NCBI GenBank assembly: GCA_000004695.1 | Contig: CM000151.3 | Span: forward strand, 4,768,001 to 4,832,000 | Length of the DNA stretch: 64,000 nucleotides | Source: Dictyostelium discoideum | Taxonomy: Eukaryota | Direction of reading: 5' to 3' | Part shown: positions 104 through 59,492 of the stretch, one piece after another | How the letters are laid out: every line of letters begins with the position of its first letter | Numbering within the stretch: position 1 is the first letter of the stretch | Program-made: the position numbers and the translations under genes | The notes under the pieces: model-generated | Told to the model about the DNA's origin: nothing | Databases searched by the model: none | The model's input: only the letters and a program-made list of their open reading frames with translations

Positions 104-5452
<5,349 letters not shown>

Positions 5453-10747: not shown

Positions 10748-14720
<3,973 letters not shown>

Positions 14721-15186: not shown

Positions 15187-16498
15187 TTAATTTTTAATTT
15201 TTTTTCTTTCTGAACTACATTCACTACAATTGAATGATTTAAAAGGTGGTACACAATGAATATAAACACCAATTGTTAAACAAGCCATAATTGGACCAAC
15301 CATATATGGCCAAATATTTTCAAATTTTGATAAAACAATCGCTGGTGATAAACATCTTGCAATATTAAAACCAAAGATATAATTGGGTGCAATACCACCA
15401 GATGCTATAATTGAAAGACATAACATTCCTGAAATGAAAAATGAACCTGTAATTGGTCCTAAAAAAGGTGTTTGACGTGGATCAAGTGCCGTTCCAAAAG
15501 AAACATACAAATTAAATAGTGAAAGCATATATTCTAACCCTAATGCTCCACTTGGTGTTATAGATTGTCCAAATGAGCACATACCTAAATTTCCTCTACT
15601 CATAACATCATTTGGTAAAATTCCTTTAATTATAGCTGACCCAATAACTCCACCAACAATTTGTGCAATCATATAAATTATACATCTTATAACTTTTTTA
15701 TTATAAAATATTAGTAATTATTTAAATAAATAAAATAAAATAAAATAAAAAATACATACAAGAAGTATAACCAGCGAAAAATGTTGCTAATGTAATTGAT
15801 GGATTTAAATGACCACCACTAACAGGTGCACATGCTAAAATTAATAAAAATAATAATGGTATATGTAAAAGACCACTTAATATTGGTACTTTATAATTTG
15901 GTACACTATTTGATAATTGTTGTAATGTGAAATCATCTAAATTTGAAATATATGAAAAATTGAAATAATTTATAGAGGATGTAAATATTGCTATAGACAT
16001 AAACATGAAAAGTGCTGTACCAACCATTTCAGTAATTGCTGCCCTATATAATCCAATATTATATAGTTCATTTATACCTGAAATAAAATTTAATTTCTCT
16101 ATACACTTTTCTTTAAATGATTTTAATTTAATTTGAGGTGATGATGATGGTGATGGAGATGGTATTTTTCCAATATTTTCTTCCTCTTGACCTTCTTTTA
16201 TTATTACAATTTCTTTTTCATCCTCTTCTTCTTTTAGTTTTGTTTCAAAATCTGATAATTCTATACCTTGATCATTTTCGGTATCAATATCTTCATGATT
16301 ATGATCAAGTGATTTTTCAAGTGAAATTGATTGTTGTTTTTGTAGTTGTCTATTATATTGTATTAAACTTCCTTGGTAAAATGGTATTTCAACATATCTT
16401 ATTGTTTTTTTGGGTATTCTCCTTCTAAATCTTAAATTATGAGTTCTTTTATTATTATTATTATTATTATTTACTTTATCGTCATCCATTTTTATCAC
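15187..16498 (-). CDS. Aquaporin/MIP-family channel with non-canonical filter motifs (NPS ... NIA), ~414 aa. Model: complement(join(15187..15692,15760..16498)) with a phase-1 intron (donor T|GTATGT, acceptor AAAAAAG|TT)
   Basis: 'SGGHLNPSITLATFFAGYTS' + 'F' + 'IRCIIYMIAQIVGGVIGSAI' aligns position-for-position with AQP1 '[41 protein letters not shown]'. The second half-helix 'FGFNIARCLSPAIVLSKFENIWPYMVGPIMACL' aligns with '[33 protein letters not shown]'. There is a long N-terminal cytosolic extension with poly-N and acidic stretches. Confidence 0.75.
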
Positions 16499-16750
16499 AT
16501 ATGTATTTTTACAATTTTATCGATAATATATAATAAGAGGGAAAAAAAAAAATAATAAATAAAATTATTAATAACAAAAATAAAAAAAATAAAAAAAATA
16601 AAAACAGTTCGCGAATTTTGGGATATTTTAAGACTATAAACTCGGTGTCATTTTCCGAATTTTATTTTTATTTTTTTTTTTTTTCAAATATTAAAATAAG
16701 ATTAAATTTGAATTCATTCTTTTTATTGGATGTCAAAAAATGTATTCCAG

Positions 16751-16788
<38 letters not shown>

Positions 16789-16887
16789 TGATTTATGGAT
16801 GGTATATATATTTTTTTTTTTACATTTATTTATTTATTTATTTTATTTTTAATTTTTTTTTTTTATTTTTTTATTTTTTTATTTTTT

Positions 16888-22572: not shown

Positions 22573-24748
22573 TTATTTTTTAATTTTAAAATTATCAAAT
22601 GGAGCTAATTCATAATTTGCAATTGATTCAACTAACCATTCAGTTTTAACCATTGGAGCAGTAACTTTTTTAACTTCATAAGATTTAGTTGATTCTTCAG
22701 CAATACAAATTGAAGCCAATTCAATTGATTTACAAATTTTACCACCTAAATTTCTAATTAATTCTTCTTTTGATTTTCTATTAATACCACTTGGATCAGC
22801 TTTACCGGCCAAAAAGAATGTTTTACCAGAGAATAAAGGTTCATCACCATTCTGTTGTGATAAACGAGCCATGTTTGGACCTGGATGTTCATCAACTTCG
22901 TGATCTTCTTCGTTGTCAATGATTTGTTGTTGTTTAAAGGATTCCTCTAACCAAGAACGTTTTAAGACCCAAACTCCTTTTGAAACACCCAAAAGGAATT
23001 TAAGTGTTCTATTCTTTGAATCATTCATAATGACATGAGTACATTCTTTAGGATCATCTGAAACGGTTAACCCAATTACTCCCATCGACTCTATAATTGA
23101 ACTACGTTCACTATCATTAAAACCTGATAATAAAACCAATTTCAAATTATCTAAATCCTCTTCCTCTACCTCTGAGAAACTTTCATCATCTGATTCTTCT
23201 TGATGTTTTTTACTACCTCCTTTTTTCTTTTTACCTTTTGATGATTTCTCATCCTCTACTTCACTATCATCACTATCATTTTCATCCTGTTTGGTTCTTT
23301 TTGGCGTTTTTTTACCAGATCTGGTTGTATCACTTTTTGGTGATTTCTCTGCTTTTTTGGTTTTCTTTTTTGGTGATTCTTTTTCTTCATCTTCTTCCTC
23401 TTTTTCTTTTGGTTTTGGTTCAACTGATTTTCTTTTTGATGGTGTTGTATTTTTAGTTGGTGTTTTCTTTTTTGATGGTGATGTTTCTTCCTCATCATCA
23501 TCTTCTACTATTTTAGAAGTTTTCTTTACTGGTGTTTTCTTTTTTGATGATTGTTCTTCCTCATCATTATCTTCTTCTTCTTCTTCTTCTTCTTCTTTTG
23601 ATGTTTTCTTTACTGGTGTTTTCTTTTTTGATGATGATAATTTTGTTTCTTCCTCTTTATCATCTTTTGATATTTTCTTTACTGGTATTTTCTTTGTTGA
23701 TGTTTTCTTTTCTTCCTCTATTTCTTTTTTATTTGGTGTTTTTTTTGAAGTTGATGATTTAATTTCTTTATTTGGTGTCACTGCTGTTGGTACTTTAAAT
23801 GAGGATTTCTTTACTTTAGTGGTTTTCTCAACCTTTTCTTCCTTTTCTTCCTCTTCATCATCTTTTAATTTTTTATTTGATTTTTTAGTGGCAGCTGGTG
23901 GTTTCTTTTTTGTTTCTTTTTCTGTTGATTTCTTTGGTGTTTCATCTTCTTCCTCTTCCTCTTCCTCTTCTTTCTTTTTAGATGATTTTGAATCTTTTTT
24001 AGGAGTTGATTTCTTCTTTGGTTTTTTCTCTTCCTCATCTTCTTCCTCCTCCTCCTCCTCCTCCTCTTCCTCTTTATCTTTTTTTGATTTTGATTTTGAT
24101 GATGGTGCTTTCTTTGGTTTAGAAGCAGTTGGTTCAGATGGAGTTGACTCTTCATTATTGTTCTCCTCTTCTTCTTCCTCTTGATCTTTTTTCTTTTTAG
24201 TACTCTTTTTATCTGGTTTTTCAATTGGTGTAACTTTCTTTGATGGAGTTATATTTTTTTTGAATTTTTTTTGATCAGCTGACTCTTTATCATCATTATC
24301 ACTTTTAGCTGCATCATCAACTTTAATTTCTTCCTTTTTAGCTCTACTTTGTTTAGTTGGTGGTGGTGGTTTAGTTTTTTTAACAGGTGTTGCTGGTTTT
24401 AAATCTTCCTCTTCTTCTTCTTCCTCCTCTTCTTCAACTTGCTCTTTTGTTTCATTACCTTTGTAAGGTACTAAATCTTTACCATCTATTTTAAAAAAGA
24501 TATAATATATAAATAAGGATAAATTTATTACTTATATAAAAAAAATTTAACTTTTTTAAAAAAAACTTACTCTTTTTTTGAGATGACTCAGATTGTGATT
24601 TTTGAGATGATTTAGACTGTGAAGATTTAGATTGTGATGATTTTGTTTGTGAAGGTGATTTATTTATTGTTTGGTCAACTAATGGAGAAATAACAAGAGC
24701 AGTTGTTGTGACATCTGATGTTATTTTAGAAGATTCTATTTCTGTTGC

Positions 24749-37682: not shown

Positions 37683-37978
37683 ATGATTGTCGAAGTTGAA
37701 TTAGGATTTTTATTATCAACATTATTTTTTACAATTATTTCAATTATTTTATTTTATTTTTTTATTAATAATAAAAATAATTTAATTGATCAATGCCAAG
37801 AAGTAACAAAATTAAATAATAAAGATAATAAAATTGTAAATAATAATAATAATAATTATAATAATAATAATTTTAATAAAATTGAAGAAATTAATGATGA
37901 TAAAAATAAAGAAATTATAAAATTAATTAATAATAGTAATAATAAAAATTTAAAAATTAAAATCCAAGAAATAGATAG

Positions 37979-38030
<52 letters not shown>

Positions 38031-40419
38031 TTAAATAAAAATAGTAATGAAATTTTTAGAAATTTTAAAATATTTAGTGGTTCACTTTTAGTTATTGATC
38101 AAGATTTAAATATTATATCATCATCCGAGAGTGTTAGAGATATTTTCTCAAATATTAATGATATTAATGGTGTGAATCAACAAGTAATTGGTAGTTTACA
38201 AAATTATAGTTTCATAAATTTAGTTCATCAAAAAGATAAAGATAGAGTTTCAACATTTTTAAAATTAAAATTTAAAAATAATAATAATATTAAACATCAA
38301 CAATTTTCTGAAGATATTATTAATGAAAAAGATGAATTAAAAGAAATTCAAATTGAAGATAATAAAGAATTAATTATTATCAATAATAATAATAATAATA
38401 ATAATGATAATGTATTAAAATTTGGAAATAATAATAGTAATAATAGTAGTATTATATTATTTCAAGGAGTTTATCATTTAAATAATACAGATTTATCAAA
38501 ACCATTTAATTTACAAGTTTCAATTTTACCATTTATTTCTGAAAATTATATTGTATTATCATTAAAAGATTTATCACCACCACCATTAAGATTACTTTTA
38601 AATAAAACTTCTTCTGCATTATCACCAAGATCATTATCATCATCTTCATCTTCATCACCATCATCATCGAATAATAATGGTAATACAAACAATAGTGGAT
38701 CATTATCACCAAGATCTTCAAATTCAAATGGTAGTGCAGTTTCACCAAGAAATGTTTCAAGTAATTCAATGTCACCAAGAGGTCAAAATAGTGATCGTAG
38801 TATTTCATCACCAAGAGGTTCATCATCGTCGTCGTCATCATCATCAAATGAATTAGCAATTTCACCTAGAAATAGTAATGGTACAATTTCATCACCAAGA
38901 ACATCAAATCTTTCAATTGAAAGTGTATTAAATAATAAATCAATTGATATGATTTCACATTTATCACATGAACTTAGAACACCAATTCATTCAGTTATTG
39001 CATCTATTCAATTGTTTAGATCAACCATTTTAACAGTTACTCAAAATGAATATTTATCAATTATAGATACATCAGCCAATACATTATTGGAATTGGTATC
39101 CAATGTATTAGATTATAAAAGAATTAGATCAGGAAAGTTAACATTGAATAATGTTGATTTTAATCTTTGTCATGTGATTGAAGATGTTTGTGCAATGGTA
39201 AGTCCACAAGCTCAAGCAAAATCATTACAAATCGCCTCATTTATCTTTATTCATTGTCCATTGAGTTTCTATGGTGATCCAATTAGATTAAGACAAGTTT
39301 TATTGAATTTAATTGGCAATGGTTTAAAGTACACTAATAAAGGTCAAGTTTGTATCTCTGTTGAGCCTGAACAAGTAAATGAACATTGTATGTATTTACA
39401 TTTCCAAGTTAAAGATAGTGGTATCGGTATAAAGGAGGAGAATATGTCAAAATTATTCGCTGGCTTCTCTCAAGTTAATAATGGTGGTACCACACAAGAG
39501 GCATTGGGAAGTGGTTTGGGTTTGGCAATATCCAAGGATTTAGTAGAGTTAATGGGTGGTAAAATTTGGTGTTCTTCAAATGCCACTCAAAATAATGGTG
39601 AAGCTGGTTGTACATTCCATTTCGTTATACCATTGGAAACCAATCCAAAACAATTACCATGTCCAATTCAAAATTTCAATGGTTTATCAGTATTGGTTGT
39701 CGATAAAAATCCATATATTCAAACTGTACTTTGTCAATATTTAGAGGGTTGGAATTGTCAAGTCATTAAAAGTTCCGATATAAAAGAGGCATCAAATAAA
39801 TTAAAAGATCTAAGAAGAGAACAAATTGAAGTGGTTATGATTGATATCGATAATATCGATTTCCGTGATTTCATTCAATTTAAAGATGCTTTTAATCGTT
39901 TGGAATTCGGTAGAATCGGTTTAATTACAATGTCAAGTGATAGATCAATGGTAAATGAAATGGGTTTTGGCACTTCAAAATTAACAAAACCATTCCGTCA
40001 ATCTCATTTAGTAGCTTGTCTATTAGCTAGTATGCCTGAACATTCTTCATCAACTACAAATTGTTTTTCAAATATTGTTGGTATGAATAGTAATATTAAT
40101 AATAATAATAATATTAATAATAATAGTAATAATAATAACAATAATATGCAAACTCATAATAGTAATAGTGTTTATGGTAATGGTAATTATGGTAATTGTA
40201 CTCCATTCTCAAATAACAACAATAGAATTCATATGATGAGTTCAGGTGATAAACCAAGTATTAATAATAGAAGAATGTCAATCTCATTGGGTAAAATTCC
40301 AACTTTTAATTCTGGTGGTTCAAATTCACCAAGAAGTAAAAAATTATTTGAGGAAGTTTTACAACAACAACAACTTCAACAACAACTTCAACAACAACTT
40401 CAACAACAACAACAACTTC

Positions 40420-40470
<51 letters not shown>

Positions 40471-41360
40471 TACAACAACAACAACAACAATTAAATACAA
40501 TTGATGATGATTCAAATAATTATTGTAATACAACAGGTACTATGGATAGTATTGATGAAATTAATAAAAATAATTATAGTGATAGTGAAAGTGATGAATT
40601 AAATGATGATCAAGCACCAATTATAGCACCAGTTCAACAATTATCATTTGGTCGTGTTACTAGAAGACATTCTATTGATATTATTATGTTTGAAAATTCT
40701 AGAGAATTATCAGAATTAAGAAATCTTGAAGATTCAACTAGATATTTGTCACCACGTTCAATGAATAATAATAATGGTAATAATGATAATGGTATCAATG
40801 GTGGTAGTGGAAACTCATTATTTGGATCATCAATTAAAGAAGAGATTGGTGGTACTTCTGATACAAGTTCATTAGCACAATCACCAAATTCATTATCACC
40901 AAGAGCCCCAACAAAGATTATGATATTAGATGATAATCCAGTTAGCTTAAAATTAATGCAACGTATCTTGGAAAGTCGTGGATTCGAATGTTATCCATTC
41001 GATTGCTCAGAGAAAGCCGTTGCTCAATTGGATCAAGTTAATCCTGCCATCATTTTCATGGATTGTGAAATGCCAAAAATGAATGGTTTCGAATGTACTC
41101 AATTAATAAGAAAGAGGGAACAAGAATCACTTTGTCTATTAAAAGATCGTAAGATTATTATTGCTTTGACTGCTCATATTAATCCTGAAATTCAAGTTAA
41201 ATGTTTCGATGCTGGTATGAATGATTTCATCTCAAAACCATTCAAACCACAATGCTTAGAATTAATCCTTAGAAAATGGGAAGATTGTATAAGTAATAAT
41301 CAATTAAATTATAACAATAGTTTAATTAATAATCAAACTACAATTCAAGAGCAAGTTTAA
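37683..41360 (+). CDS. Hybrid sensor histidine kinase (Dictyostelium dhk family): N-terminal TM segment, HisKA + HATPase_c, and a C-terminal receiver domain; 1,225 aa, single exon
   Basis: H box 'ISHLSHELRTPIHSVIASIQLF'; N box 'LLNLIGNGLKYT'; G1 'KDSGIGI'; G2 'GSGLGLAISKDLVELMGGKIW'. The receiver reads 'KIMILDDNPVSLKLMQRILESRGFECYPFDCSEKAVAQLDQVNPAIIFMDCEMPKMNGFECTQLIRK...ALTAHINPE' with the phospho-accepting Asp in 'IFMDCEMP'. Ser-rich and poly-Q linkers are present. I cannot tell which dhk paralog this is. Confidence 0.85.
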
Positions 41361-56946: not shown

Positions 56947-57156
56947 ATGGTTGAATTAGAATCAATGTCATCATCAAGCGAATGGTTTTTAAATAATAAC
57001 AGTAATATTCATAATAATACACACAATCATAATCATAATAATAATAATAACAATAATAATATAAATAGTAATAATCACGGCCATAGTGCAAATAGTAGTG
57101 CACACAACCACAACAACAATAATAATAATAATACCAATAATAATAGCAACAATAGC

Positions 57157-57194
<38 letters not shown>

Positions 57195-57762
57195 ACAAAA
57201 TACAAATAATGGTACATTTTTAACACCATTACCTGTATTAACTAATAGTAGTACTGGTTTGGGAAAAAGTATTGATTGGTTATATACAAACACCTCAAAT
57301 ACCGACTCACATAATATAAATTCAAGTAGTAATAAAGTTACAAAACTTTCAAATGGATTTTCTTTATTAAATCAAGATGGTACTCAATCACCATCATGCT
57401 TTTTAAATTTATCCTCAACTGGTAACCACGAAGATCCTGTACAAGTTCCAATGAACAATAATCCACAAGATCTCTTATTCCAATTTAATATTTCACCACA
57501 ATTACAATCACAAAATAATAATAGTAGTAATAATAATAATAACAATAATAACAATGGTAGTAATACTCCATTAAATGGTAGTAATGGTAGTAATAATAAT
57601 TATTCATCACCAATTTCACCAGTACCACAATACCAACACTCTGCTGGTTCTTCACCAATCCAAGAGTATCCATATTATTCACCATCATCATCACCCCATT
57701 CAAATGAATCAACCTCACCAATTACAGTTATTAAAGATAGTGGTAGTATTATAAATCCAATC

Positions 57763-57815
<53 letters not shown>

Positions 57816-58902
57816 TAATAATAACAATAATAATAATAATAAAAACAATTTAAATAATAATACATTCCAATTTTCATCATTAAAAAGTACAACTGGTATT
57901 GCACCACCATTACAAACCGATTATCATTTATTATATAATTTTGTTCAACAAAATTTTTCTGGAAAACCAGAAGATTCATTATTAAACCAAACTTTAAATA
58001 ATAATAATAATAATAATAATAACAATAATAATAATAATAATAATACAACAATCCAAACTTCACCACAACCACTTGTTTTACCACAAATTCAAAATCCATT
58101 TTTACCATATAATATTTCGACTCCAATTTCAGTTCCAAATAATATTTTATCATCAGCTCAATCATCAACAAATTCATCACCAAACAACAACAACAATAAT
58201 AATAATAATAATAACAATATTTTTTCAACTGTTAATAATAATAATAATCTCGTAAATAATAACAGTAATAATATGGAATTAGATGTAGATAAACCATTTT
58301 CACAAGAAAAATTTTATTTACACTTAAAATCAATTGTACCAAGTTTTAATGAAAATTTTGAAGCATCATCTGAATCTGCACAATCTGAATCATCTCAAGA
58401 AAGTGATTATGATGCACTCAATGAACGTAATAGTGGTGTTAAGAAGAGAGGTAGAGATGAAGATCAAATCGATACATCTGGTCAAGTTGTTTTATCACGT
58501 GAACATGTTTTGAAATTATCAAGTAAAGAAATTGAAGAATATGTTTCACGTTTAAAGATGCACCATATTCTTACTCAAGCCGAGGAAAAAGAATTGAAAA
58601 AACAAAGACGTTTAGTAAAGAATCGTGAATATGCTTCACAATCTCGTTCTCGTAGAAAGATTTATGTTGAGAATATTGAAACAAAACTTCAAAAAACAAA
58701 TCAAGATTGTGCTTCAATTAAATCTCAATTAAATTCAGTTAAAGAGGAAAATAAAGCCTTAAAGAAACAATTGTACAGTTTAACTAATACTCTTAAAAGT
58801 AATCCTTCTTTAGCTGAAGCATTTGGAAAAATTTTCTCTCCAATAGGTAATAATAAAACTTCTTCTGCTACATTATTTGTAAGTTTTATTTATTTAATTT
58901 TA

Positions 58903-58943
<41 letters not shown>

Positions 58944-59492
58944 AAATAAAAAAAATATACTAACTTTTTTATAATTTTTAGGTATTTTTCTTTTTATTTA
59001 CATTTACATTTTTATTCCAATCTTCTACAGTTACCTTTAATTCAGAGTATGTTTTATTTTTTTTTAAAATACCATTAGCGTTCATAAAATTTATATTAAT
59101 TTTTTTTTTTTTTCTCTTTTTATAGTAGGGTATCTTCAATTCAACGTAATCTTTTAAGTTTAGAAGAAACTCAAGCAACAGAATGGAACATAAAGAGAGC
59201 CATTCTTGAAGAAACTAAACAATATGTCGATTCTTTGTTAACCTCCTTATATACTTCAAAACTACAATCTTTATCAGAAACTCCTTTAGATACATCTAAT
59301 TATATCATCAACAACAACAATAACGAATCAACTTCCGAAACAACAACAAACAACAAAGTAGTTTCGACATCTAGTGATGATATTTCAAATGTTTTATCAA
59401 ATCTTTCTGTTTCCGATAAAGAAGTTCCTCAAAAGTGTAAAGATTCATCTGATTTAAAATGTGATTCTCCCCCACTTTCACCTTTAAATTAA
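56947..59492 (+). CDS. bZIP transcription factor with a C-terminal transmembrane segment and lumenal tail (membrane-tethered, ATF6/CREB3-like architecture), ~786 aa. Model: join(56947..58878,58982..59046,59129..59492) with introns GTAAGT...TTTTTAG (phase 0) and GA|GTATGT...TATAGTAG|G (phase 2)
   Basis: Basic region + leucine zipper is 'ELKKQRRLVKNREYASQSRSRRKIYVENIETKLQKTNQDCASIKSQLNSVKEENKALKKQLYSLTNTL' in exon 1. The 65-nt exon 2 encodes 'VFFFLFTFTFLFQSSTVTFNSE', which with the preceding 'SSATLF' gives a ~20-aa hydrophobic helix. Exon 3 continues in frame with 'VSSIQRNLLSLEETQATEWNIKRAILEETKQYVDSLLTSLYTSKLQSL...KCKDSSDLKCDSPPLSPLN*'. The long N-terminus is poly-N/Q/S-rich. Confidence 0.65.

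Follow-up and report, generated by a model that had tools for sequence, protein, structure and literature searches.

In a 64,000-nucleotide stretch of Dictyostelium discoideum DNA (hereafter the window), a minus-strand gene was predicted to encode an aquaporin of the major intrinsic protein (MIP) family in which both Asn-Pro-Ala (NPA) boxes are altered and which carries a long N-terminal extension, and the question raised by this locus is to which kind of aquaporin such a protein belongs and whether it could still work as a channel. The gene is DDB_G0274209, and we consider it probable that it is the published protozoan XIP DdXIP1;1 (deep clade MDC3), with the solute/water channel function and the N-terminal regulation proposed below. 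Neither the gene nor its aberrant motifs are new to the literature; the additions to the record made here are the loss of the box-2 Pro across the recovered dictyostelids, the purifying selection acting on the gene and a conserved motif in the N-terminus.

The membership of the MIP family was confirmed with Pfam, as residues 144-381 of the spliced protein match the MIP profile (PF00230) with E=1.2e-30 and 107.4 bits (cut-off 25) over profile positions 4-215 of 222, a span that takes in both halves of the protein. A HMMER search against the sequences of solved structures gave 55 aquaporin matches (best fish AQP1, 1.2e-19; human AQP5 and AQP2, ~1e-17), in whose alignments NPS and NIA fall exactly on the two NPA boxes; the original observation is correct. 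The two loop strings quoted there are likewise present in the spliced protein (SGGHLNPSIT, aa 224-233, and GFNIARCLS, aa 351-359), and neither box is canonical, although both Asn are kept. The residues that matter for the pore and for the family assignment are the following.

15797..15805, minus strand: first NPA box, N229-P-S231, after P222-V-S-G-G-H-L
15358..15366, minus strand: second NPA box, N353-I-A355, in loop E
15863..15865, minus strand: His209, position H2 of the aromatic/arginine (ar/R) filter, 20 residues ahead of the box-1 Asn
15373..15375, minus strand: Phe350, ar/R position LE1 (R-6)
15352..15357, minus strand: Arg356 (ar/R position LE2) and Cys357 (the 'NPARC' cysteine), directly after NIA
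15577..15579, minus strand: Cys282 in loop C (L279-G-M-C282), the XIP 'LGGC' cysteine

The remaining filter position, H5, was derived from the sequence as S341 (R-15) or, with a two-residue shift, as I339. An AlphaFold2 model computed from a 50-sequence alignment (mean predicted local distance difference test score (pLDDT) 79.6, predicted template modelling score 0.76, membrane core > 90) has helices at residues 145-181, 200-224, 230-239 (half-helix HB), 244-268, 290-311, 325-344, 354-364 (half-helix HE), and 371-390, and its Foldseek matches comprise AQP2, AQP5, AQP1, AQP0, AQP4, SoPIP2;1, and AtTIP2;1, with target-normalised template modelling scores of 0.71-0.85 among the top 50. As modelled, DDB_G0274209 thus has a complete aquaporin fold, with six helices and two half-helices. 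No XIP structure was among the Foldseek matches or the matches to sequences of the PDB, and we know of no XIP structure that has been solved. Loop A, at about 25-30 residues, is unusually long and contains a segment, N-Y-[FY]-N-[FY]-S (aa 172-177, ~15960..15977), that is conserved in dictyostelids and includes an N-x-S sequon (NFS in D. discoideum).

The XIP subfamily was defined by Danielson & Johanson in 2008 (PMC2386804), and is recognised by three hallmarks: box 1 is preceded, at a distance of seven residues, by a Pro (PISGGHINP), loop C contains a Cys (LGGC), and another Cys comes directly after the loop-E Arg (NPARC). A bridge between these cysteines, which are specific to XIPs and extracellular, has been proposed (PMC2386804, PMC5345251). 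All three were found in the D. discoideum protein, as P222-VSGGHL-N229, L-G-M-C282, and N-I-A-R-C357, and the Ala of box 1 is replaced by one of the residues characteristic of XIPs (V/L/I/S/C/T), here Ser. Two further positions depart from the described members: box 2 reads NIA, whereas nearly all described XIPs keep a canonical NPA there, and H2 is His209 instead of the aliphatic residue of angiosperm XIPs, a position at which moss and fungal XIPs differ as well (Q, Y, N). In the descriptions of 2008-2009 the lone protozoan XIP was XM_639170, or DdXIP1;1, for which aberrant NPA boxes were reported (PMC2386804, PMC2789079), with the ar/R residues H, S (alternatively I), F, R in PMC2386804 and H-I-F-R in PMC2789079. 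Because the residues derived here (H209, S341 or I339, F350, R356) equal the published ones, XM_639170 is almost certainly DDB_G0274209. Table 3 of PMC2386804 gives the second box of XM_639170 as 'NPA', though the text of the same paper calls the boxes aberrant; the genome reads NIA at 15358..15366, and on this comparison the table entry looks like an error. Three published phylogenies place the amoeba protein with the XIPs, on a long branch (PMC2386804, PMC2789079, PMC11316224), and in the most recent of them (Lorente-Martinez et al. 2024) slime-mould sequences fall within the XIP deep clade MDC3. A full-text search for DDB_G0274209, XP_644262, and Q8SSP2 returned nothing besides the two plant papers of 2008 and 2009. 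In an exhaustive HMMER scan over 1.84 billion representative proteins (3431 relatives), proteins with the Cys pair, i.e., XIP-like ones, rank first, sequences from Chlorokybus, Closterium, a fern, and Protea among them; both cysteines are present in 47 of the 50 top-ranked relatives, and their share declines steadily with rank. Besides Met1, the only invariant residues in the 50-sequence alignment of the closest relatives are G225, C282, and C357. A second, word-indexed homologue search with this alignment (8000 candidates scored) brought few XIP-like additions and no sequence named XIP.

The original prediction had likened the protein to AQP11/12, the intracellular 'superaquaporins', in which Leu rather than Arg follows box 2 and a Cys stands nine residues after it. 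Deviating NPA boxes are common to both, and the finding that one plant XIP, VvXIP1, resides mainly in the endoplasmic reticulum (PMC10144872) makes an intracellular location possible. The analogy nevertheless fails at the residues named: Arg356 directly follows box 2, residue 364 is a Leu and there is no Cys nine positions after the box, the Cys standing instead at +2 as in XIPs. A BLASTP comparison with a human AQP11 sequence entered by hand yielded E=0.32 as against 1.2e-19 for AQP1, and the nearest relatives are XIP-like, so an AQP11/12-type identity is very improbable.

Nothing but the rarity of NIA speaks for a different kind of explanation, namely that a faulty gene model, an assembly artefact, or a pseudogene is being looked at, in which another splice or a sequencing error would restore NPA. 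The gene consists of two minus-strand open reading frames (ORFs; 16498..15722 and 15672..15187) joined via a 67-nt intron into a coding sequence of 1236 nt (411 aa), with a GC content of 25-33% in the coding segments, within an extremely AT-rich window. The predicted span of 15187-16498 is correct at its end only, since the start codon is the ATG at 16489 and 16498 is merely the GTG start in the ORF list.

15760..16489, minus strand: coding exon 1, aa 1-243 and the first base of codon 244 (spliced product = XP_644262.1), with the N-terminal extension, transmembrane helix (TM) 1, the long loop A, TM2, and loop B with NPS
15693..15759, minus strand: intron, 67 nt, phase 1
15187..15692, minus strand: coding exon 2, the rest of codon 244 to aa 411, with TM3-TM6, loop C, and loop E with NIA
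15189..15187, minus strand: TAA stop at the end of exon 2

Five in-frame joins of GT donors and AG acceptors were enumerated, and only 15759/15693 (donor GTATGT at 15759, the Dictyostelium consensus; acceptor AAAAAG ending at 15693) gives the RefSeq protein, the product being identical over its full length to XP_644262.1 ('hypothetical protein DDB_G0274209', D. discoideum AX4, chromosome 2), EAL69997.1, and UniProt Q8SSP2. In D. cf. discoideum the intron measures 122 nt and in D. purpureum 58 nt, with position and phase unchanged. A splice variant that restores NPA had been looked for, and none of the five joins touches either motif; because both lie deep inside exons (NPS 12 codons upstream of the donor, NIA 109 codons downstream of the acceptor), no splice variant can restore it. 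A sequencing error is countered by the same NPS and NIA in three further, independently assembled genomes of the D. discoideum complex, with many synonymous differences around them (in the D. cf. discoideum gene, many such changes surround the NPS codons), and NPS, NIA, LGMC, and the N-terminal motif described below are identical in four proteins of this complex. The frame is open, and the ratio of nonsynonymous to synonymous substitution rates (dN/dS) between AX4 and D. cf. discoideum is 0.085 in the MIP domain and 0.30 in the N-terminus; against D. purpureum, where dS is saturated, it is 0.21 in the MIP domain. By these measures the gene is intact and under purifying selection. A pseudogene is ruled out by dN/dS, and to an artefact of any kind we attach next to no probability; as far as sequence evidence goes, both this explanation and an AQP11/12-type identity are effectively excluded.

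The two boxes were then compared among the homologues recovered from other dictyostelids, listed here by species.

Dictyostelium purpureum: box 1 NSS, box 2 NIT
Tieghemostelium lacteum: box 1 NST, box 2 NIS
Polysphondylium violaceum (two proteins): box 1 NPT and NPV, box 2 NIA
Acytostelium subglobosum: box 1 NPV, box 2 NIA
Cavenderia fasciculata: box 1 NPT, box 2 NMA
Heterostelium album: box 1 NCT, box 2 degenerate

The box-2 Pro is absent from every one of these homologues, among which strict orthologues and paralogues may be mixed, and the box takes the form N-[I/M]-[A/S/T] except in Heterostelium. Among all relatives, this Pro is kept in 10 of the 25 nearest as compared with 20 of the 25 next nearest, and box variants such as NWA, NVA, and FPT occur, e.g., in red-algal-like sequences. 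This distribution identifies the loss of the box-2 Pro as an old feature, neither an error nor a sign of decay. Two side observations concern individual homologues. The Heterostelium album model PPL_05741 (710 aa) is fused to an endonuclease/exonuclease/phosphatase domain and reads F-S-I-N-R-C at the second box, which may reflect either a wrongly merged gene model or a copy undergoing decay. In a group of close relatives (8 listed, including Porphyridium purpureum 'TIP4-3'), box 2 is NWA, NVA, or NFA, with A-I/M/Q/V-C standing for A-R-C; lacking the filter Arg, this group is, judged by its residues, an even more deviant XIP-like lineage.

The other unusual part of the protein is its N-terminus, which had been described as a low-complexity extension of about 170 aa; it is indeed unusually long, at about 144 aa, while only part of it is of low complexity.

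16058..16489, minus strand: N-terminal cytosolic extension, aa 1-144 (Pfam domain from aa 144, AlphaFold TM1 145-181)
16355..16378, minus strand: conserved motif Y38-Q-G-S-L-I-Q-Y45, with F37 before it (from alignment and shuffles)

In order, the extension holds a poly-Asn run, a basic stretch, the conserved motif, acidic and Ser/Pro low-complexity stretches, and an amphipathic helix (aa 118-137, pLDDT 80-91 in the AlphaFold model) ahead of TM1. Between D. discoideum and D. purpureum a single island is shared within it, KKTIRYVEIPFYQGSLIQYN in the former and KKSIVFEVDNIPCYFQGGIIKYN in the latter. The D. purpureum extension is even longer, in-frame, and unannotated, the deposited model being partial: DICPUDRAFT_9720 ('partial', 275 aa; GL871501.1) is truncated, and the in-frame ORF from the ATG at 3276 (3276..4000 of the extracted stretch) adds ~244 residues with poly-Asn, a His run, and the motif, giving a protein of 519 aa. 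Across the family the consensus of the motif is F/Y-x-G-[GS]-L-[VI]-[RQK]-Y, usually located ~45 residues before TM1, and of the 107 homologues whose N-terminus reaches 30 aa or more, 32 carry it under a strict and 41 under a loose definition, whereas 0.0 and 0.37, respectively, would be expected from shuffled sequences. The carriers include dictyostelids, the red alga Porphyridium, Chlorokybus, Closterium, the streptophyte alga 'Mesen1', and the fern Pteridium, and the motif is missing from two angiosperm-type XIPs. Its association with the Cys pair is weak (Fisher p=0.036) and partly an effect of truncated sequences. In the AlphaFold model of the D. discoideum protein, residues 31-60 form an isolated pLDDT peak (block means 74, 79, and 69) between regions below 57 in an N-terminus that is otherwise disordered, and in the model of the Chlorokybus homologue the motif block reaches 82 versus 53 and 55 on either side; this pattern suggests that the motif segment packs against the folded core. 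The regulatory role attributed to the extension in the original prediction gains some support from the presence of a conserved motif within it. We would go further only tentatively, and more in doubt than in favour: the motif might be an undescribed ancestral regulatory element of the XIP clade, a cytosolic segment that docks on the cytoplasmic face and acts in gating or sorting, inherited from the ancestor that Amoebozoa and Archaeplastida share, with a loss in angiosperm XIPs. A description of such a motif was not found in the XIP papers examined (including PMC2386804 and PMC5345251), which is no proof of novelty. If this reading were true, D. discoideum would be a tractable model for XIP regulation.

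Based on what is known of the family, DDB_G0274209 would form tetramers and conduct water and/or small uncharged solutes passively. The central hydrogen-bond and electrostatic barrier could still be provided by the side chains of the two Asn, and the change of Pro to Ile in one box would be tolerated, as Pro-to-Leu and Pro-to-Ser changes are in PfAQP and TbAQP2. The His/Ile (or Ser)/Phe/Arg filter would be TIP-like at H2 and H5 with a bulky Phe at LE1; this Phe, together with Ile, His, and Arg, speaks for a tight or gated filter, and the pore is probably narrow and of low or gated conductance. The pair Cys282-Cys357 probably ties loop C to helix E, and Y38-QGSLIQ-Y45 is likely to dock at the cytosolic side of the channel and to control its gating or trafficking. 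The XIPs characterised so far transport glycerol, urea, boric acid, or H2O2 but in most cases little water (PMC4978503, PMC10144872), and in NbXIP1;1 a single Ile-to-His change at H2 suffices for water permeability (PMC5345251). Since a His is naturally present at H2 of DdXIP, some permeability to water or H2O2 is plausible by analogy.

Several points weigh against a conducting and regulated XIP. The loss of Pro from both boxes in D. purpureum and the degenerate second box of Heterostelium hint, at the level of sequence, at relaxed requirements at these sites. By the account of von Bulow and colleagues (2012), AqpA and WacA are reportedly water-impermeable in oocytes, and the same is relayed for wild-type AqpB in PMC13332306; by analogy, a silent phenotype of DDB_G0274209 is plausible. 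All four filter positions are bulky (PMC2789079), so the pore may be closed, and those who first described the amoeba protein were sceptical that it functions as plant XIPs do. The link between XM_639170 and XP_644262 rests on matching residues, pLDDT is the sole ground for the docking of the motif and both models share one alignment, and transport, localisation, or expression data for DDB_G0274209 were not found in the searchable literature. Taken to their end, the bulky H/I/F/R filter, the box-2 Pro missing from all recovered dictyostelids together with the state of the boxes in D. purpureum and Heterostelium, and the silent AqpA, AqpB, and WacA would fit a permanently closed, non-conducting MIP, whose fold is kept for another role (adhesion, scaffold, or sensor) and whose degenerate boxes are a symptom of lost channel function. 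Yet it is the residues important for conduction that have been conserved (the two Asn, Arg356, His209, and the paired cysteines), the MIP domain evolves under a dN/dS of 0.085-0.21, and the characterised XIPs are solute channels. Moreover, PfAQP (NLA/NPS) and TbAQP2 (NSA/NPS) conduct well without one Pro, with unchanged Asn geometry (PMC12803511). A closed protein is in our view unlikely, albeit a more serious candidate than the explanations dismissed above, and a solute/water channel of the XIP type with a regulatory N-terminus is preferred.

An alpha-L-fucosidase gene lies upstream on the same strand as DDB_G0274209, and the intergenic distance between the two is ~0.4 kb in the window (16490..16887) and ~1.95 kb in D. 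cf. discoideum (JBTAPH010000040.1), where the extra ~1.5 kb (about 1135..2662 of the extracted stretch) reaches 36% GC, has no AX4 counterpart at the site, and may have arisen when a mobile or repeated element inserted there. A blastn search with the D. cf. discoideum intergenic region (low-complexity filter off) returned for the most part AT-rich noise, with meaningful matches at the two flanks alone, and a scan of the 64-kb window found no tRNA genes. Other large ORFs of the window were assigned by Pfam as follows.

37683..41360, plus strand: hybrid histidine kinase (HisKA, HATPase_c, Response_reg)
2384..5452, minus strand: RasGAP
10748..13729, minus strand: ubiquitin C-terminal hydrolase
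22573..23781, minus strand: BRCT-domain protein
56947..58974, plus strand: bZIP factor

No other aquaporin subfamily is understood as poorly as the XIPs: which substrates they carry is disputed, and their emergence has been dated close to the last eukaryotic common ancestor. In D. discoideum an XIP is available as a single-copy gene that is open to genetic work, its pore motifs depart further than those of any plant member, and the shared N-terminal motif is a concrete handle on regulation. The locus itself, being annotated and with its peculiarities in print, adds no biology of a new kind.

Set beside known systems, the protein shares with the XIPs the P-x-SGGH-x-NP signature, the loop-C LGxC cysteine, and the Cys after the loop-E Arg, as well as the NPS of box 1 with PpXIP1;2 in particular, and it differs from them in box 2 (NIA, where nearly all XIPs have NPA), in the Phe at LE1, and in the 144-aa extension; angiosperm XIPs further differ by an aliphatic Val or Ile at H2, which is His in DdXIP. 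With PfAQP (NLA/NPS; PDB 3C02) and TbAQP2 (NSA/NPS) it has in common that they are protist MIPs in which one box has its Pro replaced and the other has Ser for Ala. In those two, however, the Pro is lost in loop B, whereas in DdXIP it is lost in the pseudo-symmetric loop E, and they are GlpF-like aquaglyceroporins without the Cys pair and without a long N-terminus, in contrast to an XIP-type protein with a narrower, His-containing filter. Plant TIPs resemble it by His at H2, Ile at H5, and Arg at LE2, AtTIP2;1 (PDB 5I32) is a good structural match, and the Porphyridium homologue was automatically annotated as 'TIP4-3'; TIPs nevertheless have Gly or Ala at LE1 (Phe in DdXIP), canonical NPA boxes, and short termini, they lack the Cys pair, and their PDB sequence match (E=1e-8) is much weaker than those of AQP1, AQP2, and AQP5. 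For N-terminal regulation, Pichia pastoris Aqy1 (PDB 2W2E) is gated by its N-terminal Tyr31. In DdXIP, too, the cytosolic N-terminus is long and contains a conserved Tyr, which by analogy could block or cover the mouth of the pore on that side; no N-terminal sequence similarity was detected between the two, the PDB match (2w1p/2w2e) covering only aa 220-381 with E=1.4e-4. D. discoideum AqpB, finally, also possesses an unusually long segment in the cytosol, to which the gating of a channel that is silent otherwise has been attributed (PMC13332306), but it is set apart by its description as another paralogue of another clade, in which loop D is the regulatory element and not, as proposed here, the N-terminus.

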